From assembly GCA_000092065.1 (NCBI GenBank), contig CP000586.1: a stretch of 64,000 nucleotides of DNA; one strand, given 5' to 3'. Every line of letters begins with the position of its first letter. The stretch's first letter is position 1. Source of the DNA: Ostreococcus lucimarinus. Lineage: Eukaryota. This document shows, piece by piece, positions 10,584 to 53,771 of this stretch. The position numbers were made by a program, and so were the translations under genes. The notes beneath the pieces are model-generated. The model worked only from the letters and a program-made list of their open reading frames with translations, did no database searches and was not told the DNA's origin.

Positions 10584-11627
10584 TCACGACGTTGAGTTGC
10601 GAATGTTCGCCAGGACGTTTAGCTTGACGTCTTCGTCGCAAAACGCAAAATCCATCGCGCGAGTCGACATGTCGCGAATTTCGTCATCCGTCAGCCCGAA
10701 CGTTTCCGCCGCGATGGCATACTCGCGCGATAGCGATGTCTGAAAGACCCACGTGTCGTCAGTGCACAAACAAATCGGGTGTCCCGCGCTTCTCAATTTG
10801 GCAAAGTGATGCTCCGCGAAGCCGGCGCACGAACGCGTCTTCACGTTGGACGTCAAACACAGCTCGACAGGAATCTTACTCGCGAGTAAATCTCGAAGCA
10901 AGCTCTCGTCACGAACAGTGTACACGCAGTGCCCTAATCTGTCAGGGCGAAACGCTATGAATGCTCGTTGTTCAGCCTCCGTATTCGCGACTTCGCCGTT
11001 GTGCAAGCTCGTCCCCAATCCATGCGCCCTCGCCTTTTCGAACGCGGCGACGTATCGATCCCAATGCCCGACCACGGGAGAACCGCTCAAATCCACACCG
11101 ACGACGCCTCTCTCTTTATATTTGATCGCCAAATCGATCGTCTCCATCGCCTTGCTCGCGTCGTCGTCTCGCGCGCGGTCCACGCTAAGAATGATCCTCG
11201 CCGCGAGCTCCCCATCCGCGCCGTCTCCACCGCACCGACCGCACGCGTCCTCCAATCCACTCAACACCGCCTCGACGTAGCGCTCCTTCCCGATCTGTTC
11301 CTTCGGCGTCGTGCGTAGCTCCAAGTATCGCGCTCCGTCCCGCGCAAAGTCTTCGCAGACTTCGCGCGTCACCCGTCGCAGCGCCGCCGCGTCGTCGACG
11401 CACGCGTGCACGAGCTTAAAAATCTCAAAGCACGCGAGGAGATCGCGATCGCTCGCGAGCGCGCGCTCGCACTCGCGCTCGAGCCCCCGCGCTGCCGCGA
11501 GTTCCAGTAGAGTGTCCTCGCGCACGCAACCGTTGACGTGCGCGTGCAGCTCGACGCCGCACCTCGCGCGCGCGAACGCCGCGGCGCGGCGCGCCCGCGC
11601 GTCGTTCTTCGCGTCGTCGCTCCGCAT
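10584..11627 (-). CDS. Adenosine/AMP deaminase-like protein (ADAL family metallo-dependent hydrolase)
   Basis: ELHAHVNGCV (HxHxxG), SLHNGE, CLCTDD: adenosine deaminase family motifs; full ORF, ATG start. Confidence 0.8.
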   Translation of the reverse strand: MRSDDAKNDARARRAAAFARARCGVELHAHVNGCVREDTLLELAAARGLERECERALASDRDLLACFEIFKLVHACVDDAAALRRVTREVCEDFARDGARYLELRTTPKEQIGKERYVEAVLSGLEDACGRCGGDGADGELAARIILSVDRARDDDASKAMETIDLAIKYKERGVVGVDLSGSPVVGHWDRYVAAFEKARAHGLGTSLHNGEVANTEAEQRAFIAFRPDRLGHCVYTVRDESLLRDLLASKIPVELCLTSNVKTRSCAGFAEHHFAKLRSAGHPICLCTDDTWVFQTSLSREYAIAAETFGLTDDEIRDMSTRAMDFAFCDEDVKLNVLANIRNSTS

Positions 11628-11708
11628 GCGCGCCGTCGCGCGTCGTCGCGCGCGACACTGCCGCCGCCGCCACTAAACTCCACGCACGCGCGAGCGCGCC
11701 GACGCGTC

Positions 11709-15505: not shown

Positions 15506-16116
15506 CTGTTTTTCAACCGCGCGTCCATCGCGTTCGTCGTCAGTCGTCGCGTTCGTCTTCGTCGCCCGATGCCGCTAGGGCTTTCTCAATAGGGTCACCG
15601 CCGCTCGCGCGCGCCTCCAGCGCCGCCATCTCGCGCGCGCCATCTCCCACGACGAACGCGCGCGCTCGATCGTAATCCTTCGCGCGATCCAAGCGCGCGC
15701 GCGTCGTCCACCCCCTTTCGCGCGCGCCGAGCCGCCGCATCGTAAAGCCCCGCGTCGTCGCCGTCGATCACCGCGCGTCGCGCCCTCCGCGCGCGTTCGC
15801 GTCGCCGACCGCGCGCGTCGCCGACCGCGCGCGCCACCGCGCGCGACGCGAATCATCGCGCGTCGCGCTCGCGCGCGTCGTCGCGTCGTCTCGCACCTTC
15901 TCGTCGTCGGCGTCGCGTAAAGGCGGACGGCGCGTCGCGCGCCCTCGACGCCTCGAGGCGCGCGCGGTGTGATTTCACTCAAAACGCACGCACATGGGCT
16001 CGATCGACGTACAAAGCGATGCACGAGTCGCATTCAAAGGAGTGAAAACGCTAAGATTTCGAACCTTTGGGTTTCGAACGTTGGCGGTCGTTCGCCGCAC
16101 TGCGCGACGGCGACGG

Positions 16117-22100: not shown

Positions 22101-22191
22101 GGAATTCATCAACATGCTCGCGAGGAGGGTGCGAGATTCACTGGAAACGAGTGACCCGACGGCGCACAGAAATCGATTTGGAATAGCCTAA
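16117..22191 (+). CDS. NUP205: Nuclear pore complex protein NUP205/Nup192 family, single about 6.1-kb exon
   Basis: Long alpha-solenoid protein. Colinear segments match plant NUP205: LRAYLAVFKAVMENAERAE...HLKAALLDAIGALC resembles LVAYLNVLQKVVENGN...YLKGALRKTIAAF, and SHLLLGFDITGASSEIEVSPFTEFNCLSVILELLE resembles THLLLKFDLDAPVEGTVLQPKFHYSCLKVILEMLE. Start taken at MSIFGAP; the track ORF begins 41 codons earlier. Confidence 0.7.
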   Translation: MSIFGAPSTPVAGASALFAPAVTTPANVGGTPRATDANGDDARRKSDGWSPASRYQNLLSSVRALEHGRASERDRERARRALRVNETRLREMTFFEGRNAGDAARVASGRATLSHGGEARLGELDVEHASAIAVALDLNEIVSVELMVGAIEHGAPADDVVPAAIGIYMRERAAALESLLAVLRCADGTAPLDGVMDEELKDYADGLLRDGALFARLVKLVTAPPPGGPFLVAPTVPTQHVGGPLALAGQQQQATTSSSSQERLLGPLDKLVDIRGRPILRQECVAHERRLVVECLFHSARVSTSLSSENAQALLVLAGRSAEAMRDLEKVAVEDMPTGYGTIFAAAAMFTPTLSGVEAAVPKTDLAKAVATTINSPNAPPLFSFVRFAWAILALDLGLSEAEEAIKESLKNDALEAIDLVLKTGVFQDDHTVARTQNLELVHIILSRYLHHNLRKTSLHRMLTDGTAVREPFVENGLTIEIDAAKPMADVCSVFAELYKQEPKLAKACAGLKSFLEISGDSEHSVGSLVKLLELCTTIAQTSEDARRIFELLQRSQGAANWDRLLGALIGYVQRFMSSPDDLIDAGEEFDPREGDPEMNEADAEGLRAYLAVFKAVMENAERAEAAHWLMWLEHRIGAALMDALLQLYINPVPLHLKAALLDAIGALCWDQNTAFDVWQLLDQAGILPNPMQTGLLQTATSQRSDVSYIYSMIETHEHKYESTTGWLRLIGKLLAMTRDIENGPCADGGSPSWFHTRFIRDRLLGELGTRVHVDQTERWVMARDCVDHLLFMLRLYEDTMISSFTVEDVDSASLDAPLAIGYGEPSSVLALRSAEHTRGDVERPSTPGADILTDFLTSGSTCQMVMNILSIGAESLSFERHARHGDALEDCVLGALQLLDYILSIDQRAVAKLRAKHKDAVFYRTLDEVLSADMTQMANILGYVQYKYNPEITYTALKILRVLCQRVEHIVALLPPASRAAIVEGCASCLELAFAMVPPGDEEIPLEESASSAVDCATLVFELLHENLERAGANMSHLLLGFDITGASSEIEVSPFTEFNCLSVILELLEAAPPSMHASVVLPYQAPELAADLLQRLATCKSTAPPTLALLEQWPPHAPTLALSDLLSDALRTELPKEPSKRRSVMHHRSSILRLCAEVLEVEAPPAKGRVPEMAPTLVLDIMNVLLDNGREGLGAYTHDPNVEHGQFAVLELPKSVTQLSETSTELALLASFGDDVNEMREELSATQLLDDSRNVAEGGIMTTSRRGDKVIDASVVRAKLQAECRRLDSESHHMHGVRQDAMEFVKSRRERAINATLRIVEARNSVIEDATARSEIFLAWEKLVTLAVSRGLSSIVTYFDLRNASVTTAAVDDSPLSSHSILFELVDGILSGLCEAEPFGGGSDSAKAAPFCRLVHVIVSQLRQLGEQDRAKGNTSAVLAPSKCRALLRSLIASMLHRTPVPQVSRLDIISALLDYLAYCRPDTDGVSPVTKQGQAVAGTSVAFSQVMDIDIEKGNAAIIQRDATALVDLISRDAKEGSNDTKAITLGALEAMVAVCSGTGVGGIEVLLLQNDIAKSCLRELECVSMPDLVLNTPRAAAHSKAIEASLSLLLRMAQSEPSQMVALGTLVSLTRCRAIDAYADIHSASAATATMAVDAPFSDLPIPRARHHKLLVNVIRLVGSLLAAAPQPKPVPSPTLGQYPGAIVESDGIPAVISQTLEFVEAHAAVIHRVLADRASRPHLADLAELEATVNLVTRLLKGPVLPDPKLRLHGAMDVLTMTVCSESNKYVKYVSKTLGKSSAGDDMMLAASDDLRALDAADRMWRRFISIRSMILSVQRVLVNKGLTKFTFAASDGVVGDERPTVHLFGTVVMRLSLELSQLADARRDALKSIDHYKILRDGSVTESDLLARVALVESDIRTVVISTENALEVLYAHLQPLVYSGDDDSLVAPSMELNGGKTRTSEFGVLASFMLPGLHSLIQFEKSTLGLDTEFINMLARRVRDSLETSDPTAHRNRFGIA

Positions 22192-37681: not shown

Positions 37682-38043
37682 CGCTTTCCGTCGTCCGTCG
37701 CGTCAATCGACCTCGGCGGCGCGCGTCGCGTCGACGCGCGCCCGGCGCGCTCGCGCGCGCGCGCGCGCGGCGTCGACCGGTCGAGGCGCGACCGCGCGCG
37801 CGTCGTCGCGTCGCGTCGGTCGTTCGCGTCGCGCGCGCGCGTGTGGCGCGCCGACCGACGCGACGCGCCGAGACTCGACTCGACGGCGCGCGACGCGCGC
37901 GTTCGCCGCACACGCGCGCGCGGCGGCGCGGCGACGACGCGAGCGGCGACCGCGCGAGCGTCGACGCGCGCTCGGAGCGCGCCGCTCGCGGCGTGAAACG
38001 CCGATCGCGCGCGCGCGGGACGTCGAACGCGCGGGTGGATAAA

Positions 38044-41000
38044 ATGCGCGCGACGACGCGCGCGGACGCGCGCGACGCGCGCCTCGCGACGGCGCGCGCT
38101 CGAGAGGGACTCGCGCGCGCGCGTCGACGCGCGCGCCCCTCGCGCGCGCGCGCGTCGACGCGGACGCGCGCGAGGGCGGCGGTGGAGGGCGACGCGGGCG
38201 AGGACGTCGCGGCGCGAGCGCGCGAGGCGAGACGACGCGCGGAGGCGCGCGCGGAGGCGCGATTGGCGGAGACGTGGGCGCGGCGCGAGGGCGAGAGAGA
38301 CGCGCGGGCGGACGCCGCTGAAGCGCGGGATGGCGCGCTGTCGGAGCTGGAGTCGGCGCGCGAGGCGTTGAGGCGCGCGCGCGAGGACAAGGAAATCGTC
38401 GAGGCGACGTTGGCGCGGACGCGCGAGGACTCGGCGCGGCGCGCGGATGCGGCCGCGACGGAAACGGAAACGCTGCGACGCGAGCTCGAGAAGGTGCTGG
38501 ACGCGCTCGACGGCGAGAAAAAGGAAAAGGCGCTCGTCGAAGAGCGCTTCGCGAGCGAGCGCGAGCGCTTGTCCGACGAGGCGGTCGACGAAGCGAAGCG
38601 CCTCCAAGCGAAGCTTGACGATGCATCCGTCGCAATTGAGCGAGCGACGCAGGCGAGGGACGCCATTAAAGAGCAGATGGCTGACGCTGTGGCTAGCAAC
38701 GCTGCGACAAAGGACGAGACGCTCCAGTTGAAGAAACAACTTGACGACGCAGTTCATGCGCTATCGGATGCCATCATTGAAAAGTCAAGCGCGGAGTCGA
38801 AAATCGCGGAGACGGAGGCCCGAAACCAGGAGTTGGAGAAGGCCAAGGCGTCGATGGTGTCCAAAGCGGAGCTGGATTGCGTGAAAAATGAACTCAAACA
38901 AGCCACACTCGGTCGCACCGCAGCGGTTGAAGACTCGGAACGGCTCGCAGACATGCTCCAAGCAGCAAAACGCGAGCTGGAAATACTTGCGCTTGACAAA
39001 AAAAACCTGCAGCAGGAGCTCGCAGAGGCAGTGGCGAAGCCGCCGCAGGTCTCCGCGGGGGACATTGAGTTGTTTGAACAGCTTGTGGCGTCGCAAAAAG
39101 AAGAACTCGCCACGCTCCGCGATCTCGCGGACACGTCTATGGCGAAAGTGAACGAGTTGGAGGAGGAAATCGACCGACTTTTGGACCAACTGGAAGAGCG
39201 CGACGCCGAGCTCGAAGAAAAGAACCGTGCCACGACGTCGCCACCAGGGCTGATTGAGTCCCCCATCGTGGTCACAGATGGAGTCGTCGTCAACCAAGAA
39301 GCGAGATCCTACGCGGATCTGGTTGAAGAAACCGTTCGAGCGCAATTGATGGACACTATTGAGGTGGAAGCCACGAGTTATATCGACGAGCAAGATAAAC
39401 GTTTGGTGGAACAAGCGTCGGGTGACGCGCGGAAAACAACTGATGGAGTGTATTACTTTGTCGGCGACGTCCGACCTTCAACACGAGTTCGCCTGATATA
39501 TAATCGCGAAACCACATCTCGAATGTCGCGCGATGGTCAAGTATTTGCACACGTTGGATTCAACGGATGGAGTCTGGGTGTGTCCAAAAAAATTGGCATG
39601 ACTCCACTGGCGCACGACGCCAAAGAGCGCGATATCGATCACAGAGTACGCGACCAAGGGAGCTGGTGGATCTGCGAAGTTGAAATTCCACCAGGCGCGA
39701 GCACGGTTGAGTTTGTGTTTAGCGACGCCAACGGTTTTTACGATAACAATAGCGGCAAAGATTACCACTGCCCGGTTGATGTTGAGAATTTACCGCGTGA
39801 ACACAGAATCTCAGCCCGGATCAAAGCGGAGACGGAGCGACGTCGAGACGCGATTGAAAAGTGCGCTAAGAGAGCTGGCAAACGCGCAGCACGCCATGCA
39901 GAAATGCGCGCCACTGCGTTAGTACGAGCAAGTGAGGGGGCAGCACTGATGCGTGTGCACACTGTGCCGTATCAAGGGAAAGCGGGCGGTGAAATGACGA
40001 TCGTTTATCGCGCCGAAGGCGGTCCACTGGGAGATGCACAGAATATCTTCTGCGAGGGCTCGTGGAATAGATGGAACCACGGCGCTTCGTTCGGCCCTAG
40101 TGTCATGCAGCGCGGTGACACCCCGGGGACGCTGGAACTTACAGTGAATGTGCCCGCGGATGCGCACGTCATGGATTTTAAGTTCCTCAACGAAGACGTC
40201 GCATCGCCGCAAACGAGATATGATTCCAACAACGGTGCGGACTACCACGCACCGGTGACTGGTGGCTCAGGAGCGGCTCCGAAGTTGAACGTCGTCCACA
40301 TCGCAGTCGAGATGGCGCCCATTTGCAAAGTTGGCGGCATGGGTGACGTCGTCACCGCCCTCGCGCGTGCGACTCAAGAAGACGGGCACAACGTCGAGGT
40401 CATAGTGCCGCACTACGATTGCATGCTCTTCGATGCGGTGGATGGTTACCATCGCGCTGGCAGCTGCGTTCACCACGATGTTCAAGTTGACGTGTTTAAA
40501 GGATGGGTTGAAGACGTTCCAGTGACGCTACTTCGTCCCAAAAATGGACATTTTGACGTCGGTTGTATATACGGACGCCACGACGATCACGTGAGGTTTG
40601 GCTTTTTCACTGAAGCAGCGTTGACGTGGATGCGATCAAAGAATAAAGAGGTTGATATCATTCACGCGCACGACTGGCAGACCGCACCCGCGACCTGGGG
40701 TAATTATCCAAACGCAGCGACGGCGCTCACGCTTCACAATTTACAGTTTGGAGTCGACCTGATACGCCGTGGAATGGAGTCATGCGACATTGCAACCACG
40801 GTGAGTCCGACGTACGCCGACGAGGTGCGTTCACACCACGCCGTCGCGCCGTCGCAGGACAAATTCGTTGGGATACGAAACGGTATCGATACCGACATTT
40901 GGAACCCATCAGCAGATGAATTCTTGCCGTTAGTGTACGACTCCTCTAACGCGATTGCGGGCAAGGCGGCAGCGGCGGCCGAGCTGTGCAGGCGACTCGG

Positions 41001-41857: not shown

Positions 41858-42037
41858 GTGAGCGCGCGAGCGAACGATGCGCGACGCGCGCGCGATACCG
41901 TCGCGAGGGGGTCGAACGAGGGCGATGCCCAGTGCGCGTGTGCGCGAATTTCATCGCGTGCGCGCGCGCGATGACGGTGCGAACGCGACGCGAACGCGAG
42001 ACTGATGACGGCGTTGATGGTTTCGCGCGCTACGTAG

Positions 42038-42592
42038 GCGTTGGAGAAGCTTTCAGACGATAACACGCGATTTACGTACACGGCGGATGGGCACACGTTC
42101 AACTACGTCGTCGAAAACGGGTTCACGTATCTCGTCGTGGCCGACTCAGAGCTCGGACGCCACGTCCCATTCGCGTGCTTGGATCGGATCAAGTCCGAGT
42201 TCACGCGCGATCATGCGTCGGAGGCGCAGGATGCCATCGCGCACTCGCTGAATAAATCGTTCGCGCCGAGGTTGAAGGAACACTTGGAGTTTTGCTCGGC
42301 GAACCCAGAGGCGGTGAGTAAAGTGAGCGCGGTGCAGCAACAGGTGAGTCAAGTGAAGGAAATCATGATGGATAACATCGAGAAGGTGCTCGATAGAGGG
42401 GAGAAGATTGAGTTGTTGGTCGATAAAAGCGACGCGTTGCGGTTCGAAGCTGCGAATTTTCACAAGACGGGAAGAGCGTTGAGACGGAATTTGTGGTGCC
42501 AGAACATGAAGATCAAAGTTGCTTTTGGCTTGATCATCTTCGCGCTCCTATTGACGCTCATTTTTACTCTATGCGGGAAGAAGTGTCGTTGA
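42038..42592 (+). CDS. VAMP7-like longin R-SNARE, exon 2
   Basis: Acceptor tacgtAG; ALEKLSDDNTRFTYTADGHTFNYVVENGF... SNARE motif VSQVKEIMMDNIEKVLDRGEKIELLVDKSDAL + C-terminal TM. 180-bp intron with CTGAT branch. Confidence 0.8.
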   Translation, partial: ALEKLSDDNTRFTYTADGHTFNYVVENGFTYLVVADSELGRHVPFACLDRIKSEFTRDHASEAQDAIAHSLNKSFAPRLKEHLEFCSANPEAVSKVSAVQQQVSQVKEIMMDNIEKVLDRGEKIELLVDKSDALRFEAANFHKTGRALRRNLWCQNMKIKVAFGLIIFALLLTLIFTLCGKKCR

Positions 42593-42690
42593 TGAAGTGA
42601 CGATTTTAGTGCTCTCGCCATCTGGTGTAAACGCTTTGTAAAATCATCCATTTCAAACGCAAACAAAAGTACACGCGTGCTAGCAACTTA

Positions 42691-44721
42691 CTACTCATCG
42701 TCGAACTTCAAAGCTTCACGAACGTCTTTCGTAGACGCTCGTCTGAAATCGAGCGACCCTCTACGACTTTTTCGATTCTCAGCTTTGGCGTGCGCCTCCT
42801 TCGCGTCACGCAAAAGTTCACGATGCCATACTTCCATTCTAAATAAAATTTCTCCAGCTCGTGTGGACGAGCAGAAACACAGCGGTTGCCCGTCCATGAT
42901 TTTAATCAAGTTGAAAGTTCCGACCCCGAGGTCTATTTTGTACGACAGGAAGTTGATTTGCGACTGCCAGAAACCAAAAGTCCACACGCGTTCGGTGTCG
43001 AACATCGGCATGTCGGCGAGCCCTTTCTTGCTCTTTCGCAACAGCGCCTTTAAGATTTTCTGTCGTCTGCTTGGGCTCGTACCCGGGGGAAATATGTCGG
43101 ACCTAGCGTCGACGTTTTCGATGATTGAGCCTTCGATATCTTGCACGTCGCCCTCGTATTCGCAACTCATCGCCTGCGCTGCGAGCGCTATGGGTGCCAA
43201 CATGAAGGGGCGCTCGTCCGTCGGCATGGAGAGTTCGATGCCCCATTTCTCACCGAATCCGCGCACGACGCGCGCGCACAGCGCCAACAACCAGCGAGAC
43301 GGGAGGTTTTGCAACGGGCGCGATAAACACTGACCGATGACACAGTCGTTCATGGCGATCGGACGCTTGAACTTGCCCTGTATGGCGAGTTGAATCGTTC
43401 GCGCCTTGCCCTCAAAAATCTCAGGTGGCGTGTTTTCCAAACCACGCAAGTACACAATCATTCTGCCTTTGAAGATATCTGAATCGATTTCGAACGGCAC
43501 TTGCGCGCGAATCATACTGTCTGGAAGCTGATCCTCTTGCGTGATGGCTTGTGAATCCGCTGGCGTGAACCGAAGAGCGCACGGCGAGTCAGGCCACCTG
43601 GCCGGATCGACGCACGGCGGCGGTCCCGCTCTGTCTTCCGGACGGGTCGATTTTCGCTGCATGTTTATCAGCCGCGACGCCGTGCGCTGAATCGAAATCG
43701 CTGATGCTTGCAGAAATGAGGGCGTTCGCTCGAGGTTGATTTCTCCGCCATCATGAAGCGTCGATCGATGTTTCGCCGGCGAATCATCGACAAACGCGTT
43801 CAAGCCCGATTCGGACGACTGTCGCTTTGTGGTGCCCTCGAAGACTGATTGACGAGTCAAATCTGCCACGTAAAAGAACCCCAGTAGACTCGAAATCCCG
43901 ACCGCCACGGCCGCACAGGCTGCGATGACCATCAAAAGTGAATCTAACGACATTCGAACCCCAACGAACGACGTGAGCGCCATCGCATCCGTCTTAAAAA
44001 AAGGCAAAATAGCGTACGCGATGAGCGCCACGACGCTCGCGCGCAACACGCTCAACTCCATTTTCAACGCCGACATCACGTCTTCGACTCTTTCCATCGC
44101 CGACGCGTGTTCACTCGACAGCGCCTCCACCGCTGCCGTGTGCCTATCCACCACCGTCCGCACATTCTTCATCCGCGATTCCATCGCGAGCATCTCCGTC
44201 GACACGTAATACCTCGCCGCCGATATTCCCGGTCCAACCCCCAAATGATAGCTATACAAGTGTGACCGCTTTTCAAACTTGATCTTCGCCGACTTCGTCA
44301 CCCCTACGATCAACTTCGCCGCCATGAGTTCGTTTCCGAGTCTCACCGCCGCGTCGCTGTCCCGCACCGTCCGACTCGCCACGAGCCACTGCACCGCCTC
44401 GCGTCCCGTGAAGCAATTTCTATGTTTGGTAAATCTTCTTCTGTGCTTACCCCCGCCCAGCGACTTTCGCATCTTCACCACGACGTCGAACAATTCATTT
44501 TCGCGCTCGAGCGCGCTCAGCGCGTCGAGCGATCGCGCGTTCGAGTCGAGAAACGCGGCGTCGGCGTCGGCATCTCGCGCGTCGTTGAATTCAGAAAATT
44601 CACTCTCGAGGTCGTCGTCGAGCGTCATGCTGATCACGCTGTCGGTCTCGATCGCGTCCACGGACGCGCGCGCGACGTGCGTCGAGGTCGCGTGCGGCGC
44701 GGCGTCGTTCGCAGCGCGCAT
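42691..44721 (-). CDS. DEP-domain membrane protein with C-terminal conserved domain of unknown function (DUF1769-like)
   Basis: N-terminal DEP (RRFTKHRNCFTGREAVQWLVAS), two predicted TM helices (VVALIAYAILPFF...; LMVIAACAAVAVGISSLLGFFYV), C-terminal conserved block PFEIDSDIFKGRMIVYLRGL...FEGKARTIQLAIQGKFK. Confidence 0.6.
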   Translation of the reverse strand: MRAANDAAPHATSTHVARASVDAIETDSVISMTLDDDLESEFSEFNDARDADADAAFLDSNARSLDALSALERENELFDVVVKMRKSLGGGKHRRRFTKHRNCFTGREAVQWLVASRTVRDSDAAVRLGNELMAAKLIVGVTKSAKIKFEKRSHLYSYHLGVGPGISAARYYVSTEMLAMESRMKNVRTVVDRHTAAVEALSSEHASAMERVEDVMSALKMELSVLRASVVALIAYAILPFFKTDAMALTSFVGVRMSLDSLLMVIAACAAVAVGISSLLGFFYVADLTRQSVFEGTTKRQSSESGLNAFVDDSPAKHRSTLHDGGEINLERTPSFLQASAISIQRTASRLINMQRKSTRPEDRAGPPPCVDPARWPDSPCALRFTPADSQAITQEDQLPDSMIRAQVPFEIDSDIFKGRMIVYLRGLENTPPEIFEGKARTIQLAIQGKFKRPIAMNDCVIGQCLSRPLQNLPSRWLLALCARVVRGFGEKWGIELSMPTDERPFMLAPIALAAQAMSCEYEGDVQDIEGSIIENVDARSDIFPPGTSPSRRQKILKALLRKSKKGLADMPMFDTERVWTFGFWQSQINFLSYKIDLGVGTFNLIKIMDGQPLCFCSSTRAGEILFRMEVWHRELLRDAKEAHAKAENRKSRRGSLDFRRASTKDVREALKFDDE

Positions 44722-44958
44722 CGCGCGACCGAACGGGCGGCGCCGAGGCGCGGCGGAGTCGCGCTCTGACGACCGGGCGAGCGAAGCGCGAACTCGAAAT
44801 CGACGCGAGTCCTCTCGACGATATTATTAAACGCGCGCGCGATTACTGGGATGTACTTACTGAGGTGTCGTGATCGGGTGTGGTGCGCGCGCCGCGCGCG
44901 CGACAGCCGCGGCTGACTCGCCGCGGCGCTCTCGCGAAGACGTTCGCGCCGAATTCGC

Positions 44959-45615
44959 TCAATCCATATCCATGTCGACGACGTCCGCCGCCGCCGCGTC
45001 CATCATCCCCGCCTGATCGATCGTCGCGTCGATCGGCGCCTCGACGTTCGCGCTCGCGTCTTCCGCCGCGGACGCGCCCCACGCCGCCGCCGCCGCCGCC
45101 GCCTTCATCTCCTCCGTCACCGCATCGACGTCCGTCCCGTCCGACCCCGTCGCGCGCACCGCGGACATGTCGAACGCCACGCTCGCGTCTTCTTTCCCCA
45201 GCGCGCCGTCGCCCGCGGCTTTCGCGCGCTTCGACGGCGTCGCGCCCGTCGCCGCGTCCTCGAGCGGCTTTTCGATCTCGTCGCGCAGCGTGTCCTGAAA
45301 CTCGCGCGACACGTCCTGCAGCTCGCGAATCGTGGGCTGGAACTCGCGCAGCGTCGCGCCGAGCTGCTTGGCGATGTCCGCCAGCCCCTTGGGGCCGAAC
45401 ACGAGCAGCGAGACGACGCCGATGACGAGCGCCTCGGGCGCGCCCACGCCGAAGAGAGAATTCGCGCGCTGAAGCGCACCGCGCCGACGCGCGTCGCGCG
45501 CCGCCAGCGGCGTCGCGCGCGCGGCGCCTTTGCGCGCGCCGCGCGCCGCGCCGGCGCGCCGCAGCGCGACCGGCGGCGTCGTTCGCATCGTCGCGAACGC
45601 CATCGCGCGCGCCAT
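44959..45615 (-). CDS. Sec-independent translocase TatB/Hcf106-like (plastid Tat pathway)
   Basis: LFGVGAPEALVIGVVSLLVFGPKGLADIAKQLGATLREFQ: TatA/B TM + amphipathic helix; acidic C-tail. Start ambiguous (ATGs at 45654, 45615, 45603, 45588); 45615 (MARAMAFATM..) is chosen. Confidence 0.7.
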   Translation of the reverse strand: MARAMAFATMRTTPPVALRRAGAARGARKGAARATPLAARDARRRGALQRANSLFGVGAPEALVIGVVSLLVFGPKGLADIAKQLGATLREFQPTIRELQDVSREFQDTLRDEIEKPLEDAATGATPSKRAKAAGDGALGKEDASVAFDMSAVRATGSDGTDVDAVTEEMKAAAAAAAWGASAAEDASANVEAPIDATIDQAGMMDAAAADVVDMDMD

Positions 45616-45856
45616 CGAATGCGGCGTCCGAACGCGGCGCGTCGCGTCGCGCATGCGCGTCGACGGCGCGGACGACCGCGCGCGAACGCCCGCGCGCGGG
45701 GCGCTGAGCACGAGCGCGGTCGCGCGCTTCGACGAGCTCGACGAGGACGACGTCGGCGATGTCGATTTTCAACACGACGACGACGAGGACGCGCGCGGCG
45801 ACGGCGCGCGCGACGACGACGGCGCGCGCGACGGCGTGGTCGGACGGTACAGAAAG

Positions 45857-47857
45857 ATGCGCGCGCGGTTCGATTCGTTCAGCGGCGCGCTGAGCGACGC
45901 GCGAGGGGCGTTCGACGCGTTCGCGTTCACGGGCTGGAGCGAAGAGCAGAAGAAAATCGTCGTCAAGCTCGCGTTCCTGGCGACGTTCGCGGTGATGTTT
46001 TACGCGACGATGGCGGTGATATTCGCGCACGTGTGGATCGGGATGGCGAAGGCGATCGGGGTGCGAGTGCTGTGGGGGGTGGGGGTGTCGATCGGGCTGG
46101 CCATGGCGCCGCCGGTGTTTCCGAACGCGGCGGCGCACGCGTTGGCGCTGGTGCTGATGGCGGCGGAGGTGGCGCTGTTGAGCGTGAACGCGATACTGTT
46201 GGGATTGGTGCATTTAGCGATCGTGCTGAACAAGCACGTGCTGCCGTCGTGGTTTCATCGGGCGAAGGTGGCGCTGCGCGAGAGCGCGGGCGGCGTCGAC
46301 CATCGCGGGCGCGCGAACGCGCACTTCGTCGAGCATCGGCAAGAGACGTTGTCCGAGCTCGAGCGGGCGAAGGACTACCGAGAGTGGATCGCGGTGGCGA
46401 ATAAGCTCGACGCGTTTCCCGCGGACGTCGGTGAGGGTGGGTCGCGTTGGAAGGCGGATGAAAAATCGGACGTGTACGACAGGCAGCTCGTCAAGGTATA
46501 TTTGAACACGATGAGGACCGCGCGCGAGCGCGACGATCTCACGGCGCTCGGGTTGTGCTTGCGAACGGTGTTACACCGAAACTTTGCCGGGATCGATAGG
46601 TTGCTCCACCTGAGATTTTCTCGAGTCGGAACGAAGAAACTCGTGCAAGATTTCAACGACGAAATCGTCGCCGTCATCAAGCACATAGCCGAAACCGCAG
46701 ATGACGAGCAGGCGATGGAGATGCTTCAAGTGTTAAAAGAGTCGTACCGTTCGCTCGGACGCACGGCGCTGTGCTTATCTGGCGGCGGCGCACTGGCGAT
46801 GTATCATTTCGGAGTCTTGCGAACGTTGTTGCAAGAGGGACTGTGCCCGCAAGTCATCTCGGGTACGAGTGGTGGCTCGATCGTCGCCGCGTTTTTGAGC
46901 TGTCATTCGCCCGAAGATATCTTGCAAGCGATTCGCCCGGACGTGTCCACTCGTTACGGGCGCCGATGGTTCCCACGTCCGCTGAAAATGGCGCTACACT
47001 TTTTGAAGCACGGCGTTTTGATGGACGCCGAGGGGTTTTCGAAGACCACAAAGGCATACTTTGGCGACACGACGTTTGAGGAAGCGCTAGCGATATCCGG
47101 AAGAGCAGTCTCTATTCAAGTGTCCATTGGCTCACAAACCGGTTACGTTCTCAATCACCTGACTTCTCCCAACGTGCTCATTCGCACCGCGGTGTGCGCG
47201 TCGTGCGCGCTACCTGGTTTGATGCGCCCTGTGGAGATTCTCGCCAAAGACAAGCACGGAAATTTAGTGCCATTTCATCCACCCGATGTGAAGTCGTACG
47301 ATGGCACCATCACCCAAGACATCCCGTCAGCACGCATGACGGAGCTTTTCAACTGCAACAACTTCATCGTTTCGCAGGTGAACCCGCACCTAAACTTCGT
47401 GCTACACCTCGCCGAGGAATCACACGGGCGACGGCAGAAGACCGCGCGTAGTTATCAGCGTCGTAATGCGGTTCAGAAGCTGTTGCGTGTCGCCAACTTC
47501 TTGCTGCTGAACATCAAGTACTCTATTCAAAAACTTCTCGAAGTTGATTTGCTCGACATTCGGTTCGTTCGCACGCTGCAAGGAGTGTTGATGCAAGACT
47601 TCAGAGGCCACATCACCATTCTGCCATCGCTTCGTTGGACGGATTACTCCAGAATCTCCAGCAACCCAACTGAGAAGGATATGGATCGTTACATCTCGCG
47701 AGGCGAGCAATCCACTTGGCCGCATGTCGAGTCGATTCGCTACACGATGAAAATTGAAACCACGCTCGTCGACAGCATCCGCGCTTTGTCCAAGCGCGTC
47801 GACGCTACGGGCGAAAAGATCAAACGAACGAACTCACATGGGTTCTTAGAACATTAA
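45857..47857 (+). CDS. SDP1/TGL-like patatin-domain triacylglycerol lipase (DUF3336 + patatin)
   Basis: YREWIAVANKLDAF...RQLVKVYLNTMRTARERDD (DUF3336), LCLSGGGALAMYHFGVLRTLLQ...ISGTSGGS (patatin GxSxG). Start ambiguity: an in-frame ATG at 45653 would add an acidic 68-aa N-terminus but abuts the TatB start. Confidence 0.7.
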   Translation: MRARFDSFSGALSDARGAFDAFAFTGWSEEQKKIVVKLAFLATFAVMFYATMAVIFAHVWIGMAKAIGVRVLWGVGVSIGLAMAPPVFPNAAAHALALVLMAAEVALLSVNAILLGLVHLAIVLNKHVLPSWFHRAKVALRESAGGVDHRGRANAHFVEHRQETLSELERAKDYREWIAVANKLDAFPADVGEGGSRWKADEKSDVYDRQLVKVYLNTMRTARERDDLTALGLCLRTVLHRNFAGIDRLLHLRFSRVGTKKLVQDFNDEIVAVIKHIAETADDEQAMEMLQVLKESYRSLGRTALCLSGGGALAMYHFGVLRTLLQEGLCPQVISGTSGGSIVAAFLSCHSPEDILQAIRPDVSTRYGRRWFPRPLKMALHFLKHGVLMDAEGFSKTTKAYFGDTTFEEALAISGRAVSIQVSIGSQTGYVLNHLTSPNVLIRTAVCASCALPGLMRPVEILAKDKHGNLVPFHPPDVKSYDGTITQDIPSARMTELFNCNNFIVSQVNPHLNFVLHLAEESHGRRQKTARSYQRRNAVQKLLRVANFLLLNIKYSIQKLLEVDLLDIRFVRTLQGVLMQDFRGHITILPSLRWTDYSRISSNPTEKDMDRYISRGEQSTWPHVESIRYTMKIETTLVDSIRALSKRVDATGEKIKRTNSHGFLEH

Positions 47858-47971
47858 TTAAATTCGACGGCGGCGGCGTTACCGCCCGCCGTCTCCGCTA
47901 GACCTGTACAAGTGTATTACGAAACGCAGCTGTTGTCCTTCACTCTCGGTCGGCCTCACTTACCCGCGCCG

Positions 47972-48601
47972 ATGACACGTCTACCCGCGGCGCAAATCAC
48001 CAAGTTCTGGTTCGGGTACGCGAGGCACGAGCTCAGGGCGCTCGCGCGACCGAACAAGGCGCAGATGGCGCTTTGGTTCGGCTCGAGAGAAGAGGACGAC
48101 ATCGTCATCCATCGAACTTTCGGTGCGCATTTGCGCGCCACGAGCGAGCTTTACGCGAGCCAACCCGCAGACGAGACGATCGCGCTCGAGTCGTTCGAGG
48201 ACGTGCTCGCAGATATCATCACGCTCGATCAGTTCTCGCGCGTGATTCATCGCAAAACCGCAAAGGCTTTCAGCAACGACGCCGCCGCCGCGTCTCTGGC
48301 GAGACGAGCGCTGAGCGACGACGCGTTCATGAAACAAGCGGCACCGCTGGAACGTATGTTCATAGAAATGCCGCTCATGCACAGTGAGGATGTCGCCGAC
48401 CACGAGTCGTTGTTGGCGATGCGAGGCATCGACGTGAGCGGGATCGATGTCGACGGTGCGCACGACGACTTCGCGGTGAAACACTACTGCGTCGTGCGAA
48501 AATTCGGAAGGTATCCGTACCGCAACAAAGTATTAGGACGCGTTAACACACCCGAGGAGCAGGTGTACCTAGATAGCAGGCCGAGCACGTACGGCCAATA
48601 G
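47972..48601 (+). CDS. DUF924-family protein
   Basis: ITKFWFGYARHELRALARPNKAQMALWFG...FGRYPYRNKVLGR pattern typical of DUF924. The track start is GTG; the first ATG is at 47972. Confidence 0.55.
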   Translation: MTRLPAAQITKFWFGYARHELRALARPNKAQMALWFGSREEDDIVIHRTFGAHLRATSELYASQPADETIALESFEDVLADIITLDQFSRVIHRKTAKAFSNDAAAASLARRALSDDAFMKQAAPLERMFIEMPLMHSEDVADHESLLAMRGIDVSGIDVDGAHDDFAVKHYCVVRKFGRYPYRNKVLGRVNTPEEQVYLDSRPSTYGQ

Positions 48602-48638
48602 TAGTCATCGTCGATAGCCGTGTATTTGAGGACGCGCC

Positions 48639-48716
48639 GCTCCCCAGTTCACCGCGCGCGAGAGCGTTCACTCGTTCGCTCCCCAGTTCACCGCGCGCGA
48701 GAGCGTTCACTCGTTC
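48639..48716. repeat. Perfect 39-bp tandem duplication in the 5' region of the ferredoxin gene
   Basis: gctccccagttcaccgcgcgcgagagcgttcactcgttc x2, read directly. Confidence 0.85.
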
Positions 48717-48844
48717 GCGCACACGAAGCGAGTTCAAAACACTCGCACTCGCGAGATCGCTCTCACTTTACGCGCCGTCCTCGTCGCTCCGTGAACGCGT
48801 CGAAACGCCGTCGTCCACGTCACAAGTTTATCCAAAAATTAAAC

Positions 48845-49282
48845 ATGCGAGCTTCCGTGACCGCGCGCTCGAGCGCGTTCGTCGGCGCCAGGGCTTTGGT
48901 TTCGAAGACGCGTGCGACGAAGTTCTCGCGCGCGGCGACGCGGGCGTCCAGAACGTTCCTGCGCGTCGATGCGGTGGCGGTCGAGATTCGCCACGAAGGC
49001 AAGACGTACAATCTGGAGGTGGCGGACGGGGACAACATCCTGGACGTCGCGCTCGACGCTGGGATCGATCTGCGGTACGATTGCAAGATGGGCGTGTGCA
49101 TGATGTGCCCGGCCAAGGTTGTCGCGGGGGCGATCGACCAGTCGGGGTCGATGCTGAGCGACGACGTCGAGGAGAAGGGCTACGCGCTCCTCTGCTGCGC
49201 CGTGCCGCAGGGCGAAGACGTGGTGATTCAGACCGTGAGCGAGGATGAGTTGCTCGAGGAGCAATTGTGCTCGAGCGATTAG
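48845..49282 (+). CDS. Plant-type [2Fe-2S] ferredoxin-like protein with transit peptide
   Basis: CKMGVCMMCPAKV (Cx4Cx2C) ... LLCCAVP (4th Cys); R/S/T/A-rich presequence MRASVTARSSAFVGARALV. Confidence 0.8.
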   Translation: MRASVTARSSAFVGARALVSKTRATKFSRAATRASRTFLRVDAVAVEIRHEGKTYNLEVADGDNILDVALDAGIDLRYDCKMGVCMMCPAKVVAGAIDQSGSMLSDDVEEKGYALLCCAVPQGEDVVIQTVSEDELLEEQLCSSD

Positions 49283-49353
49283 GCGATGCGGATGTTAGCA
49301 AGATACACGATAATGTTACTTTACAGAGATACACATTCGTCGTACGATGCGTT

Positions 49354-50679: not shown

Positions 50680-52686
50680 CTAAACGTCGAACGCGTCGTC
50701 GGAGTCGTCGTCGAGCCACTCGGCGTCGTCGGCGTCGACGGCGCCGAGGAGGTCGGTAAGACCAGTGGCGTCTTCGAGCGTTTTGGGATCGTCGAAGACG
50801 GCGGTGAGAAATCCGTCGCGATCGTCGCGGTATTTCGCGACGACAGCGGTGGAGCACGCGGTGCATCGAGGGAAGCACGGGGCGTCAAATAGGGTTTGAG
50901 TAAACCCGGCGACGCTGCCACGAATTTGATGCGGGACGACGCCCAAGGGCGAGGAGTCGGCTTCGCGCTCCGCGCTCACGTCTTGTTCGCGAGTCGGAGG
51001 CGACGTCGTGACGCCATTTTCGGCGTGAAGTAAGGCCACCATGAGTTCGGCGGCGAGCGCACTTGCGATGGGAGCAAGACCTGGGCGTGTCACCGTGCAT
51101 TGCTGATCTAGCGTGCGGTCCTTTGTGCTATTCGCCGGAGCCATGACGTCGTTGCAGAAGTAGCATCCAAGCCGCGATGACGACGCATGGTCGACGCCGC
51201 ATCCGTGCCGCATAACGAGATAAGTGTTGAAACCGAGCGCGGTATTAATGCAAAGCTTCCCCTTATCGGCGCAAATCAACGTTGGAAGCCATCTCGATTC
51301 GCGTGTGTCCGTGAGCACGTACACGACGTCGTGCGCGTCGATCAACGCCTCGATATCGTCGACGTCTTTGAACACCGATGCTTTCAGTTTCTCGCTGACG
51401 CTGTGTCCGGGCATGGGAATACTCATCAGAACTCCTTTGGCAAACATGCCCGGGAAAATTTCTGTGAGCTTTTTCGCCGCCGCCGCAGCCTTGGGCGCGC
51501 CGCCGTCGAGACAGTCTTCGAACTCAAACAGCGACTGTCGAACTGGGTTAGAATACGAAACTCGCCCCGAGTCGACGAACGTGATGTGTTTGACACCCCA
51601 GCCCATGAGCGTGCGAGCGACTGCGCACCCTAGCGTTCCCGCGCCGATGAGCAAGCACTTAGTGGCTGCGAGTTTTTCTTGGTCCAGTTCCGGAAGCAAA
51701 CGCCATCGCATGAGTTTTAGATTCAGATCCACTGCCTGCGACGCGAGTTGATTTGGATCCATGCTCGCCCCGAGATCGACCGTGCGCGGGCCCATCTTTC
51801 CGCGTGCGTTACGCTCCCAGCCAACCACTTTCATCGTCTCCACATCGAACTTTGGAAAAGACATCGTAAACTTCACACATGCCTCGGCGGCGACCCGCCC
51901 TTTGCGCGCTCGTACGCATACCACGTCCAACGCGCTCGCACCCCAACGTGCTGACGCCAACACTGCCAAGTTGCGCAAAGTCCAGCCCGGATGCGTCATC
52001 GCGCAGCACGCATCCGCGAACGCGAGCCGCGGCTTCGCACCAGCTCGCGTCCTCGCCTCGTACTCCGTCAAAGCGTACGCCTCGCGGCCGTCCTCGCTCA
52101 CCAACCACGCAGACGCCCCCCCGCTCGCGATCCATCGCTCACACGTCGCCGCGATGTCGCCATCCACGCCCTCGTTCGTCATTCCCGTGACGGCTGACGA
52201 CATAATCTTAAACTCCGCGCTCGCGAGCGCCGGAAACGCGAACCAATACGTAAACGACCAACTCTTCAAACACGCGTACGCCACCACCGCGAACGCCCTC
52301 AATCGTTCGGGCTCGCGTTCGGCGTCGCCATTCATCACGCTCTCGAGCATCTCTCGTCCCATCGCGCGCATCGCACCGTCGCGATCGAACGTCGCCAACG
52401 CCTCGCGCGTGTTCGCGCACGTCAACCGCCCGCGCGTCGTCCACGTCCCTCGTCCTCCCGCCGCCTCCTCGCCCTCGCTCGTCGCGTCGTCGAACGCGAG
52501 CGCATCCAACGACACCGCGCTCGACACCTCGGCGTTCTGCGCGCAGCACACGCGCGCGCGGACGTCGATGGGCGTTTCATCCAGTTTCGCCTCGTGCAGC
52601 TTCACGCGCGCCGCCTCGCGCCAGAACCCCCCGTCCGGCGCGCTGCACGGCGGTTCGAACATCAGCGGCGTCGTCGCGTCCGCCAT
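50680..52686 (-). CDS. ATG7: Autophagy E1-like enzyme ATG7
   Basis: MADATTPLMFEPPCSAP...LNLKLMRWRLLPELDQEKLAATKCLLIGAGTLGCAVARTLMGWGVKHITFVDSGRVSYSNPVRQSLFEFEDC: ATG7 N-terminal domain + ThiF/MoeB-like adenylation domain with catalytic Cys region. Confidence 0.9.
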   Translation of the reverse strand: MADATTPLMFEPPCSAPDGGFWREAARVKLHEAKLDETPIDVRARVCCAQNAEVSSAVSLDALAFDDATSEGEEAAGGRGTWTTRGRLTCANTREALATFDRDGAMRAMGREMLESVMNGDAEREPERLRAFAVVAYACLKSWSFTYWFAFPALASAEFKIMSSAVTGMTNEGVDGDIAATCERWIASGGASAWLVSEDGREAYALTEYEARTRAGAKPRLAFADACCAMTHPGWTLRNLAVLASARWGASALDVVCVRARKGRVAAEACVKFTMSFPKFDVETMKVVGWERNARGKMGPRTVDLGASMDPNQLASQAVDLNLKLMRWRLLPELDQEKLAATKCLLIGAGTLGCAVARTLMGWGVKHITFVDSGRVSYSNPVRQSLFEFEDCLDGGAPKAAAAAKKLTEIFPGMFAKGVLMSIPMPGHSVSEKLKASVFKDVDDIEALIDAHDVVYVLTDTRESRWLPTLICADKGKLCINTALGFNTYLVMRHGCGVDHASSSRLGCYFCNDVMAPANSTKDRTLDQQCTVTRPGLAPIASALAAELMVALLHAENGVTTSPPTREQDVSAEREADSSPLGVVPHQIRGSVAGFTQTLFDAPCFPRCTACSTAVVAKYRDDRDGFLTAVFDDPKTLEDATGLTDLLGAVDADDAEWLDDDSDDAFDV

Positions 52687-52751
52687 CGCGTCCGTCGCCG
52701 CGCGCGGTCGCCCCGCGTCCGCGCGCGCGCGTGTGCCGTCACTTCGCGACG

Positions 52752-53771
52752 ATGTTTCGTCTCGCGCGCGCGCTCTCATCGCGCGCCGCCGCGCCCGCGC
52801 GCGCGCATCGCGCCGGGTCCGTCAGGCGCGCCAAGGCGCGCGCGTCGGTCGTCGCGCGCGCCGCGGCGAGCGCGCCGGACGAGGTGTATCGCGTCATGAG
52901 CGCGAACCAAGAGGTCGCCGTCATCGCCGTCGTCGGCACGTCGCTCGTGCGCGACGCCGCGACGCGGCATCGCACGGCGCCCACGGCGACGGCGGCGCTT
53001 GGACGGTCGCTCATGTGCGCGCTCCTGCTCGGGACGTTCAAGGGAGAGGACGAGACGACGCAGCTGACGTTCAAGGGCGACGGGCCGCTCGGGCAAATCG
53101 TCGCCGTCGCGACGCACGACGGACGAGCGAAAGGGTTCTGTTCGAACCCGAACGCGGATCCGCCGCTGCGGAGCGATGGAAAATTGAACGTGGGGGCGGC
53201 GGTCGGGAGAGGGGTGCTCACGGTGAGCCGGGCGCATCCTTCGATGAAGACGCCGTTTAGCGGGTCGGTGGCTATTAGAACCGGGGAAATCGCGGAGGAC
53301 GTGGCGGGGTACCTGAGCGAGAGCGAACAGGTCGGGTCTGCCATCGCCGTGGGCGTCGCGATCGATCGCGAGTGCGAGGTGATCGCGGCGGGGGGGTTCA
53401 TGGTGCAAATTTTGCCGTTCGCGAGCGACGAGACGATTGAGATTTTGGAGCGAATCATACCGTCGCTGCCGTCGTCGACGGCGCTCGTGCAGGAGGGGTT
53501 GACGGCGGAACAGATCGCGCAGCGCGTGCTGGGCGAGCTCGGCGAGCAGAAGGATCTCATCACGAGGATGACGCCCGAGTACGGACCGTGCGAACCGACC
53601 GAGTTGCGCGGACGAATGTTGCGCGCGGTGGCTTCTCTGGGTAAGGAAGAGGTGGCTAAAATTTTAGCCGAAGACGGCCAAATCGAAATCACGTGCGAGT
53701 TTTGCAAGGTGACTAGCGTGCTGAAGGAAGCAGATTTAGCCAAGGCCCAGGGCGAGGTGGACGCAAGGTGA
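52752..53771 (+). CDS. Hsp33-like redox chaperone (HslO family), plastid presequence
   Basis: Hsp33 fold region plus C-terminal ILAEDGQIEITCEFC (compare E. coli ILAEDGEIDMHCDYC). Only 3 of the 4 zinc-centre cysteines are apparent. Confidence 0.65.
   Translation: MFRLARALSSRAAAPARAHRAGSVRRAKARASVVARAAASAPDEVYRVMSANQEVAVIAVVGTSLVRDAATRHRTAPTATAALGRSLMCALLLGTFKGEDETTQLTFKGDGPLGQIVAVATHDGRAKGFCSNPNADPPLRSDGKLNVGAAVGRGVLTVSRAHPSMKTPFSGSVAIRTGEIAEDVAGYLSESEQVGSAIAVGVAIDRECEVIAAGGFMVQILPFASDETIEILERIIPSLPSSTALVQEGLTAEQIAQRVLGELGEQKDLITRMTPEYGPCEPTELRGRMLRAVASLGKEEVAKILAEDGQIEITCEFCKVTSVLKEADLAKAQGEVDAR

Follow-up and report, generated by a model that had tools for sequence, protein, structure and literature searches.

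A Compact Divergent Gene Pair in Ostreococcus lucimarinus: Predicted Starts of a TatB/Hcf106-Like Gene and a Patatin-Domain Lipase Gene Around a Palindromic ATG

The Locus and Its Two Genes

Two genes of Ostreococcus lucimarinus CCE9901, whose nuclear genome is compact, lie with their 5' ends facing each other, a TatA_B_E gene on the minus strand and a DUF3336/patatin gene on the plus strand. The window, meaning the whole stretch of 64,000 nucleotides that was analysed, contains the following features at this locus:

44959..45615, minus strand: TatB/Hcf106-like coding sequence with its predicted start at MARAMAFAT..., 218 aa (Pfam, homologues, alignments)
45616..45652: non-coding spacer of 37 bp, or 49 bp if counted from the ATG at 45603
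45619..45621, plus strand: upstream ATG within the spacer, 3 nt from the TatB ATG at 45615
45651..45656: GCATGC palindrome, the core of the 12-bp perfect palindrome CGCGCATGCGCG at 45648-45659
45652..45654, minus strand: ATG of the palindrome, here in frame with TatB, to which it would add MRDATRRVRTPHS
45653..47857, plus strand: predicted lipase coding sequence, 734 aa, DUF3336 and patatin domains, SDP1/TGL-like (Pfam, N-terminal motif, indels, codon usage)
45653..45856, plus strand: the N-terminal 68 lipase codons, low-complexity and acidic, probably coding rather than 5' UTR
45857..45859, plus strand: internal Met69 of the lipase, proposed earlier as an alternative start, not a conserved start

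The minus-strand open reading frame 44959..45711 includes RMRDATRRVRTPHSMARAMAFATMRTT and a TatA_B_E domain (PF02416, mttA/Hcf106), which is matched at 6.1e-18 by residues 89-138 of the long frame. The block FGVGAPEALVIGVV...FGPKGLA is invariant in the alignment of TatB proteins, and the best named homologues are nearly all plant proteins listed as 'TATB, chloroplastic' or HCF106. The product is predicted to carry a TatA_B_E domain with an N-terminal transmembrane helix and an amphipathic helix. Its N-terminus of about 70 residues is rich in R, A and T and poorly conserved, which is consistent with a cleavable transit peptide.

On the plus strand, the reading frame is open from 45530 to 47857 and includes ...SRMRVDGADD.... 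Its translation matches PF11815 (DUF3336) at 9.6e-30, followed by PF01734 (patatin) at 1.7e-28. Patatins have a catalytic dyad that consists of the Ser in GXSXG and the Asp in DG[A/G/T], and both motifs are present, as GTSGG and YDGT. Members of the lipase cluster bear JGI names of the type 'TAG lipase/steryl ester hydrolase...', and the gene is predicted to encode an SDP1/TGL-type patatin-domain TAG lipase. Pfam matches and homologues thus uphold the identities given in a preliminary description of this DNA, which named a TatB/Hcf106-like gene and an SDP1-like patatin lipase. Elsewhere in the window, 42691-44721 encodes a DEP/Duc1 product identical to XP_001418511.1 of O. lucimarinus CCE9901.

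The locus was compared with seven related loci. The same neighbours in the same orientation are found in L001, L002-4, L005-7, L008, L010 and L011, and seven lineages retain the head-to-head order, their called spacers measuring 37 to 435 bp. The start-to-start distance of 37 or 49 bp lies under the 1-kb threshold that is usual for bidirectional gene pairs. The other divergent pairs in the window have 60-846 bp between their first ATGs, with three of them at 60, 78 and 81 bp. The bidirectional promoter had been described as extremely compact; the spacer is indeed very short, but the wording is overstated, as spacers of 60-81 bp occur three more times in 64 kb.

The Start Codons of the Two Genes

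The predicted lipase begins MRVDGADD... at the ATG at 45653. No other in-frame ATG lies between the upstream stop and RGAxSTSAVAxF[DE]E, an N-terminal motif common to other Ostreococcus lineages. Lineages that share this motif have only about 50% identity over the N-terminal ~200 residues and 71-82% over the whole lipase. The exact 734-aa product is present on 25 metagenomic contigs. In the sister clade, both the ATG and its palindromic context are kept, and an independent gene call also begins a 734-aa product there. The context of this ATG is weak, with C at -3 and C at +4. Taken together, translation of the lipase probably starts at the palindromic plus-strand ATG at 45653.

The preliminary description had asked whether the acidic stretch behind this ATG aligns in orthologues, and it does: the sister clade has an almost unchanged N-terminal stretch, the acidic DELDEDDVGDVDFQHDDDED included, and the motif immediately 5' of the acidic segment persists in lineages further removed. 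Acidic repeats of this triplet-like type may gain or lose units of 3 nt by slippage whether they are coding or not. The codon-usage log-likelihood of 45653-45856 in the lipase frame is +30.2 bits, the highest of the six frames, and the per-codon score is similar to that of the undisputed lipase coding sequence further 3'. Comparison of the 68 codons with the sister clade gave a pN/pS ratio of about 1 (only 14 differences, of which 3 are synonymous and 11 non-synonymous), so that residue-level constraint is weak here and it is frame, codon usage and the deeper conservation of the motif that speak for coding. As a coding test for the N-terminal extension, this ratio was set aside, since it points neither way.

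For TatB, gene models and alignment converge on starts at MARAMAFAT (45615) or MAFAT (45603). The ATG at 45603 is the start conserved in the sister clade, and the surrounding DNA is invariant across two clades. It also has a better context than 45615, with G at -3 and G at +4; G is the commonest base at -3, being present in 13 of the 29 predicted starts in the window. The minus-strand ATG at 45654, which begins MRDATRR..., has C at -3 and C at +4. These observations suggest that TatB starts at 45615 or at the conserved 45603, and not at 45654. All downstream ATGs listed earlier are found at their places (45615, 45603 and 45588 on the minus strand and 45857 on the plus strand), and their proposed use holds for TatB, at 45615 or 45603, but not for the lipase at 45857, because Met69 is not conserved and the N-terminal motif upstream of it is kept.

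The Palindrome and the Spacer

The palindrome GCATGC provides an ATG to both strands, at 45653-45655 on the plus strand and with its A at 45654 on the minus strand, which confirms the coordinates (45651-45656) given before. In the sister clade (L005-L007), it is kept as the perfect 16-bp palindrome GGCGCGCATGCGCGCC. GCATGC is under-represented in the window (8 sites, 23.6 expected), and a second site, 11624-11629, likewise forms the first ATG of a predicted gene. Perfect palindromes of at least 12 bp are abundant, with 134 in the window versus 45 +/- 7 in first-order Markov simulations, and three further ones lie within 170 bp of 45648-45659. The palindrome with its two ATGs is no more than what is expected by chance, as CG-rich palindromes are abundant in this genome. 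The chance of the minus-strand ATG falling into the TatB frame is 1 in 3, and the relation is not kept among strains.

The spacer has 78% G+C and no TATA-like stretch. Its right part is a pentanucleotide repeat (GCGTC/CGCGA) with a variable copy number. The distance from the ATG at 45603 to the lipase ATG is 49 nt in the window, 61 nt in the strain of P0262, 66 nt in three haplotypes (L008, L018 and L022) and 56 nt in L005-7 and L016, and therefore the frame between the minus-strand ATG and TatB is not preserved. Across the relatives, the plus-strand ATG is kept in frame, whereas in the 66- and 56-nt alleles the minus-strand ATG is out of frame and opens reading frames of 184-273 codons; a conserved frame relation of the two palindrome ATGs was thus not found. 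This agrees with the earlier view that both cannot be the starts of divergent genes. The upstream plus-strand ATG at 45619 is out of frame with the lipase in the window and opens a 261-codon reading frame. It shares the lipase frame in the 66-nt alleles, where gene callers begin the lipase with it (751-aa models). A search for a promoter motif common to the spacers of seven lineages found none; ACGT/TGACGTCA cores are present in the spacers of some lineages and absent from the window and the sister clade.

Interpretation and Alternative Explanations

The locus is most probably an ordinary divergent gene pair of a compact genome, with the lipase starting from 45653 and TatB from 45615 or 45603, and the starts therefore 37-49 bp apart. 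The spacer and its immediate flanks would drive both genes. Both mRNAs may start inside the spacer, which would leave them leaders of under about 40 nt, or they may run slightly into each other at their 5' ends. Leaders that start within the spacer are favoured over overlapping 5' ends, because a longer leader would gain an upstream ATG that opens a long out-of-frame reading frame in many strains. The minus-strand ATG at 45654 is probably a by-product of a lipase start codon set in CG-alternating sequence, because the context GCGC-ATG-CGCG is self-complementary. If transcribed in the TatB mRNA, it would be tolerated, lengthening the transit peptide in this strain by 13 residues, and its weak context makes leaky scanning plausible.

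Public data on the 5' ends were also considered. Three Logan contigs with the exact TatB protein (SRR1179203, SRR1179204 and SRR847307) were tried as transcript 5' ends and rejected: they are genomic, 100% identical to the genome, and all stop at 45800-45834 in the G+C-rich acidic repeat, indicating assembly breaks and not transcription start sites. A literature search for Ostreococcus transcription start sites, CAGE or 5' UTR data found only general statements. These concern overlapping UTRs, short intergenic regions and methylation minima at the ATG.

It is unlikely, though worth weighing, that both palindrome ATGs are used in this strain. TatB would then be made from 45654 as a 231-aa precursor with a transit peptide that is 13 residues longer, the coding sequences would overlap by 2 nt, the transcripts would overlap in antisense, and the TatB mRNA would start inside the 5' coding region of the lipase. 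In the window and in the 61-nt allele, the frame runs on from this ATG into TatB without a stop, the 13 added residues are rich in R, T and S, like transit peptides, and overlapping UTRs are reported to be common in O. tauri (PMC4378021). However, neither the sister clade nor the three 66-nt haplotypes, which belong to this species, keep that frame; their copies of the ATG would open the long out-of-frame reading frames mentioned above, and the context of the ATG at 45654 is weak. The 39-nt TatB extension gives no coding signal, but at this length the test says little. Between 45655 and 46103 there is no other minus-strand ATG, which would suit a TatB leader in this region, but scarcity of antisense ATGs is general, with 1.48 CAT versus 3.35 per 300 nt in the first 300 nt of coding sequences. 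The depletion in the 5' coding region of the lipase (none in 449 nt) was set aside as a sign of a long TatB leader, as it is equal in head-to-head and other genes. A start of the lipase at Met 45857 or later, as in the 566-aa GenBank model, is highly improbable; it would turn 45653-45856 into 5' UTR and promoter DNA shared with TatB and widen the spacer to about 240 bp. A 666-aa lipase from MRARFDSF is given by some metagenomic gene calls, the RefSeq protein XP_001418266.1 begins still later, at MAAEVALL, ATG 45857 has an A at -3, and the pN/pS of the 68 codons 5' of Met69 would suit a non-coding region. On the other hand, in six other lineages W, F, F, L, I or a gap takes the place of Met69, and the lineages with W, F, F, L or I keep long N-terminal regions with the STSA motif. 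In addition, the indels downstream of the ATG at 45653 (9 and 9 nt relative to the sister clade, 6 nt in another strain) keep the lipase frame, codon usage scores +30 bits in that frame, and the first-AUG rule holds for any lipase leader that contains 45653. The 566-aa model also lacks the conserved transmembrane segments of the FPNAAAH region and is therefore clearly truncated.

Two further proposals concern the DNA between the starts. The least probable of all is that CGCGCATGCGCG is a functional cis-element, being the site of a dimeric factor or the structural core of a bidirectional promoter, instead of incidental start-codon context. Its growth to 16 bp in the sister clade, while the adjoining spacer varies, and the deficit of GCATGC in the window both fit this idea. 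Against it, the right arm of the palindrome is constrained as coding sequence (ATG CGC G..), the left arm closes a (GCGTC)n/CG run, an ATG placed within alternating CG is automatically palindromic, and long perfect palindromes are in excess throughout the window. Also, the palindrome is missing from the lipase start in more distant lineages that have this gene pair, and the spacers share no common motif. It would be a long shot, too, that the 37-bp spacer is a complete minimal bidirectional core promoter in which the (GCGTC)n copy number tunes or couples both genes and toggles the frames of the upstream ATGs, giving strain-specific N-terminal isoforms or uORF repression. If true, the variation in (GCGTC)n among natural O. 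lucimarinus strains (49, 61 and 66 nt) would link the expression of a thylakoid Tat-pathway component with that of a storage-lipid lipase.

Implications and Comparison with Known Systems

The main value of the ordinary divergent-pair reading is practical and lies in annotation. The GenBank lipase model XP_001418266.1 (566 aa) is short of 168 N-terminal residues, including conserved membrane segments, and the start given to TatB/Hcf106 differs among public calls, with three or more in use. The locus adds to the cases that show how far Ostreococcus compresses divergent promoters. With its 37 bp and natural length alleles, it is also a convenient test case for minimal bidirectional promoters or 5' leader lengths. 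The locus opens no new question.

Piganeau et al. (2009), cited in PMC2850359, reportedly deal with phylogenetic footprints by gene orientation. Overlapping UTRs and transcripts are also found in the compact genomes of microsporidia and nucleomorphs. Intergenic regions of Ostreococcus are shorter than 200 bp (PMC2850359), and in O. tauri 2288 bidirectional transcript pairs have been described (PMC4035068) and overlapping UTRs concatenate RNA-seq assemblies (PMC4378021).

Like the head-to-head pairs of Ostreococcus and other Mamiellophyceae, the neighbours studied here lie far less than 200 bp apart, with a G+C-rich, TATA-less spacer and a conserved order. What sets them apart is their distance of 37-49 bp, at the short end of the range in the window, and the length polymorphism of the spacer through the pentanucleotide repeat. 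As in genomes with overlapping UTRs, the space is so small that the 5' ends must be very short or overlap each other or the coding sequence of the partner; here, however, the pattern of upstream ATGs argues for short leaders starting within the spacer. The locus also resembles known cases of N-terminal mis-annotation by longest-frame extension or by truncation, as public gene calls give TatB 216/218, 229 or 233 aa and the lipase 566, 666, 734 or 751 aa, and the apparent shared start arises because the longest reading frame is taken on both strands. Unlike plain mis-annotation of this kind, one of the two longest-frame starts, that of the lipase, is probably real. Finally, the longest-frame reading gives a 2-nt overlap at the palindromic ATG, similar to the overlapping divergent coding sequences of viruses and organelles. 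Unlike in those systems, the overlap would not be a maintained feature, since the frame relation of the minus-strand ATG is not conserved among strains.

Two ATGs in one palindrome

The sequence GCATGC, which lies between the divergent TatB/Hcf106-like gene (TatB) and the SDP1-like lipase gene, provides an ATG on either strand, as the preliminary description had noted. The other ATGs it named are also present (45615, 45603 and 45588 on the minus strand and 45857 on the plus strand), and its statement that both palindromic ATGs cannot be true starts holds: the plus-strand ATG is the predicted lipase start, the minus-strand ATG appears incidental, and TatB probably initiates further inward.

Features between TatB and the lipase
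45648-45659, both strands: perfect 12-bp palindrome CGCGCATGCGCG, with GCATGC (45651-45656) as its core
45653, plus strand: ATG encoding MRVDGADD..., in an ORF open from 45530 to 47857 (Pfam DUF3336 and Patatin)
45654 (A of the ATG), minus strand: ATG encoding MRDATRRVRTPHSMARAMAFATMRTT..., in the ORF 44959..45711 (Pfam TatA_B_E, mttA/Hcf106)
45637-45652: pentanucleotide repeat GCGTC/CGCGA, also in L018 (4841-4876), L008 and L022

Orthologous regions of other lineages were found in metagenomes (loci with L numbers), with L009 and L012 covering the lipase side only. TatB and the lipase are head to head in every related locus with both genes, and the order Longin/synaptobrevin, DEP/Duc1, TatB, lipase, DUF924 and ferredoxin is kept across the relatives. 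The synteny block (about 41900-49300; window, L001, L002, L005, L010 and L011) runs past the 2Fe-2S ferredoxin gene into an unknown gene and then an ATG7-like gene.

Relatives and called start-to-start spacers
Window: 37 bp
L008, strain 98% identical to the window: 54 bp
L005, L006, L007 and L016, sister clade, TatB 81-89% identical: 56 bp
L001, L010, L011 and L002-4, four more distant Ostreococcus-like lineages, lipase 71-79% identical: 110 bp (L010), 114 bp (L001), 199 bp (L011) and 435 bp (L002)

Lipase start codon

Between the upstream stop and the N-terminal motif RGA(L/SV)STSAVA(R/S)F(D/E)E, 45653 is the sole in-frame lipase ATG in the window. The motif is also found in L001 (DDHARSPTFARGASVSTSAVASFEE) and, in a weaker form, in L010, L011 and L012. 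The downstream ATG at 45857, proposed earlier as an alternative, is not borne out: the six other lineages have W, F, F, L, I or a gap at the position of the corresponding Met69, which therefore cannot be the start of the family. Downstream of 45653, two 9-nt indels separate the window from the sister clade and another strain (P0245) has a 6-nt insertion, all with the frame kept. In a codon-usage log-likelihood model trained on 13 long genes within the window, the lipase frame of 45653-45856 scores +30.2 bits, the best of six frames, or 0.44 bits/codon versus 0.53 for the undisputed downstream coding sequence.

Whether the acidic stretch of this N-terminus aligns in orthologues had also been asked. 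It is nearly identical in the sister clade (DELEDDDVGDVDFQHDDDDD), but in deeper lineages it is acidic without being alignable residue by residue. Against the sister clade, 11 non-synonymous and 3 synonymous changes give a pN/pS of about 1, so the low-complexity N-terminus is loosely constrained at the residue level. A G+C-rich GAC/GGC repeat (45800-45834) encodes the acidic N-terminus and is a weak spot for assembly and coverage: contigs of three independent SRA assemblies (SRR1179203, SRR1179204 and SRR847307; one of 33.7 kb) all stop there. The short-read contigs with this TatB are genomic, with their breaks in this repeat.

TatB start codon and spacer alleles

Judged from sequence comparison, TatB has its conserved start elsewhere than at the minus-strand ATG at 45654. 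For O. lucimarinus strains, gene models and alignment agree on MARAMAFATMR (45615); for the sister clade, which is without the 45615 ATG, they agree on MAFATAR (45603 equivalent). These starts lie 39-51 nt inward of the palindromic ATG (A to A). The 24 bp surrounding ATG 45603 are invariant in the O. lucimarinus and sister clades and were used as bait for further metagenome haplotypes. At -3, the base is G for ATG 45603, T for 45615 and C for 45654; at +4, it is G for 45603 and C for 45654. G is the commonest -3 base among predicted starts in the window (13/29).

Measured from the 45603 ATG or its equivalent, the lipase ATG lies 49 nt away in the window and, through a 12-nt insertion, 61 nt away in the strain of P0262; the sister clade has 56 nt, and three distinct haplotypes (L008, L018 and L022) have 66 nt. 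The variation originates from the pentanucleotide repeat, whose copy number (6.8 in L018, with a period of 5) differs among natural O. lucimarinus populations, giving the 49-, 61- and 66-nt alleles. For the minus-strand ATG to share the TatB frame, the length has to equal 1 modulo 3, as it does at 49 and 61 nt; at 66 and 56 nt the ATG falls outside that frame and begins ORFs of 184-273 codons overlapping TatB. As length and frame vary, the spacer is non-coding, and the in-frame ATG of the reference strain is a one-in-three coincidence. This loss of frame, together with models and alignment, favors the earlier suggestion that a downstream TatB ATG, 45615 or 45603, is in use.

Status of the palindrome

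The palindrome is probably not a special element, since alternating C and G on both sides of an ATG (CGCGC-AT-GCGCG) make the sequence self-complementary by default. Perfect palindromes of at least 12 bp number 134 in the window versus 45 +/- 7 in first-order Markov simulations, about three times the prediction, and three others sit within 170 bp of this GCATGC. They are mostly (CG)n runs and CGCG/GTCGAC-type motifs (e.g., 9779-9801, 37752-37769 and 38115-38136). At the lipase start, the palindrome is absent in the more distant lineages carrying the same gene pair. Another predicted gene likewise has its first ATG in a GCATGC (11624-11629). GCATGC itself is rarer than expected in the window, with 8 sites versus 23.6 +/- 4.9 in dinucleotide-preserving shuffles (all 100 had at least 8); codon bias against CAT/ATG or avoidance of a restriction-like site are possible causes.

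Gene models

The practical use of this analysis lies in gene model correction. The lipase cluster includes XP_001418266.1 (O. lucimarinus CCE9901), a GenBank/RefSeq model of 566 aa that begins at an internal Met (MAAEVALL, near 46157). It is without 168 N-terminal residues (45653-46156), among them the conserved membrane-spanning FPNAAAH region; this model and the 666-aa metagenomic lipase models are truncated. The reference genome may lack an annotation of TatB, as no NCBI accession occurs among the 40 of 91 cluster members listed. Next to TatB, the DEP/Duc1 gene (42691-44721) encodes a protein identical to XP_001418511.1 from the same strain. The 456-codon minus-strand ORF 44843-46213, antisense over the lipase 5' end and the frame-shifted region of TatB, was rejected as a gene and is considered a G+C-rich shadow ORF; its product is Arg/His-rich and without homologues, and its codon-usage score is poor.

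Transcription and compactness of the gene pair

The 37-bp spacer, together with its flanks, would have to drive transcription of both genes. This spacer has 78% G+C and no TATA-like stretch. The pattern of upstream ATGs favors very short leaders for both putative mRNAs: a lipase transcript starting left of 45619 takes in the ATG of a 261-codon out-of-frame ORF (in the window strain), and a TatB transcript starting right of 45654 takes in the palindromic ATG, and in most haplotypes this ATG is not in frame. The two 5' ends may overlap antisense, as has been reported in general terms for UTRs in O. tauri (PMC4378021). A single base, the C at position -1 of the lipase, sustains the minus-strand ATG, and one non-coding substitution could abolish it; its persistence in the O. 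lucimarinus and sister clades suggests that it is harmless, being either untranscribed in the TatB mRNA or bypassed through leaky scanning. Across 25 predicted coding sequences of the window, antisense ATGs (CAT on the coding strand) are scarcer in the first 300 nt (1.48 vs 3.35 per 300 nt in the rest), whatever the orientation of the neighbor.

The spacing had been described as extremely compact. The 37-49 bp between the start codons (from 45615 or 45603) are indeed at the short end, but they are no outlier for this genome: in a crude gene map of the window built on codon usage, the other head-to-head first-ATG gaps are 60, 78, 81, 267, 362, 434, 763 and 846 bp. In two further divergent pairs, the longest first-ATG ORFs apparently overlap, probably through over-extended ORFs of the same kind as in the TatB-lipase case.

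Divergent pairs with apparent ORF overlap
15575-16033 (minus) and 15994-22191 (plus): 40 nt
50680-52779 (minus) and 52752-53771 (plus): 28 nt

Intergenic regions below 200 bp have been described for the O. lucimarinus nuclear genome (PMC2850359). In O. tauri, RNA-seq assemblies were concatenated by overlapping UTRs (PMC4378021), and 2288 bidirectional transcript pairs have been reported (PMC4035068). The TatB-lipase locus is an ordinary compact divergent gene pair, of a kind already known in this genome.
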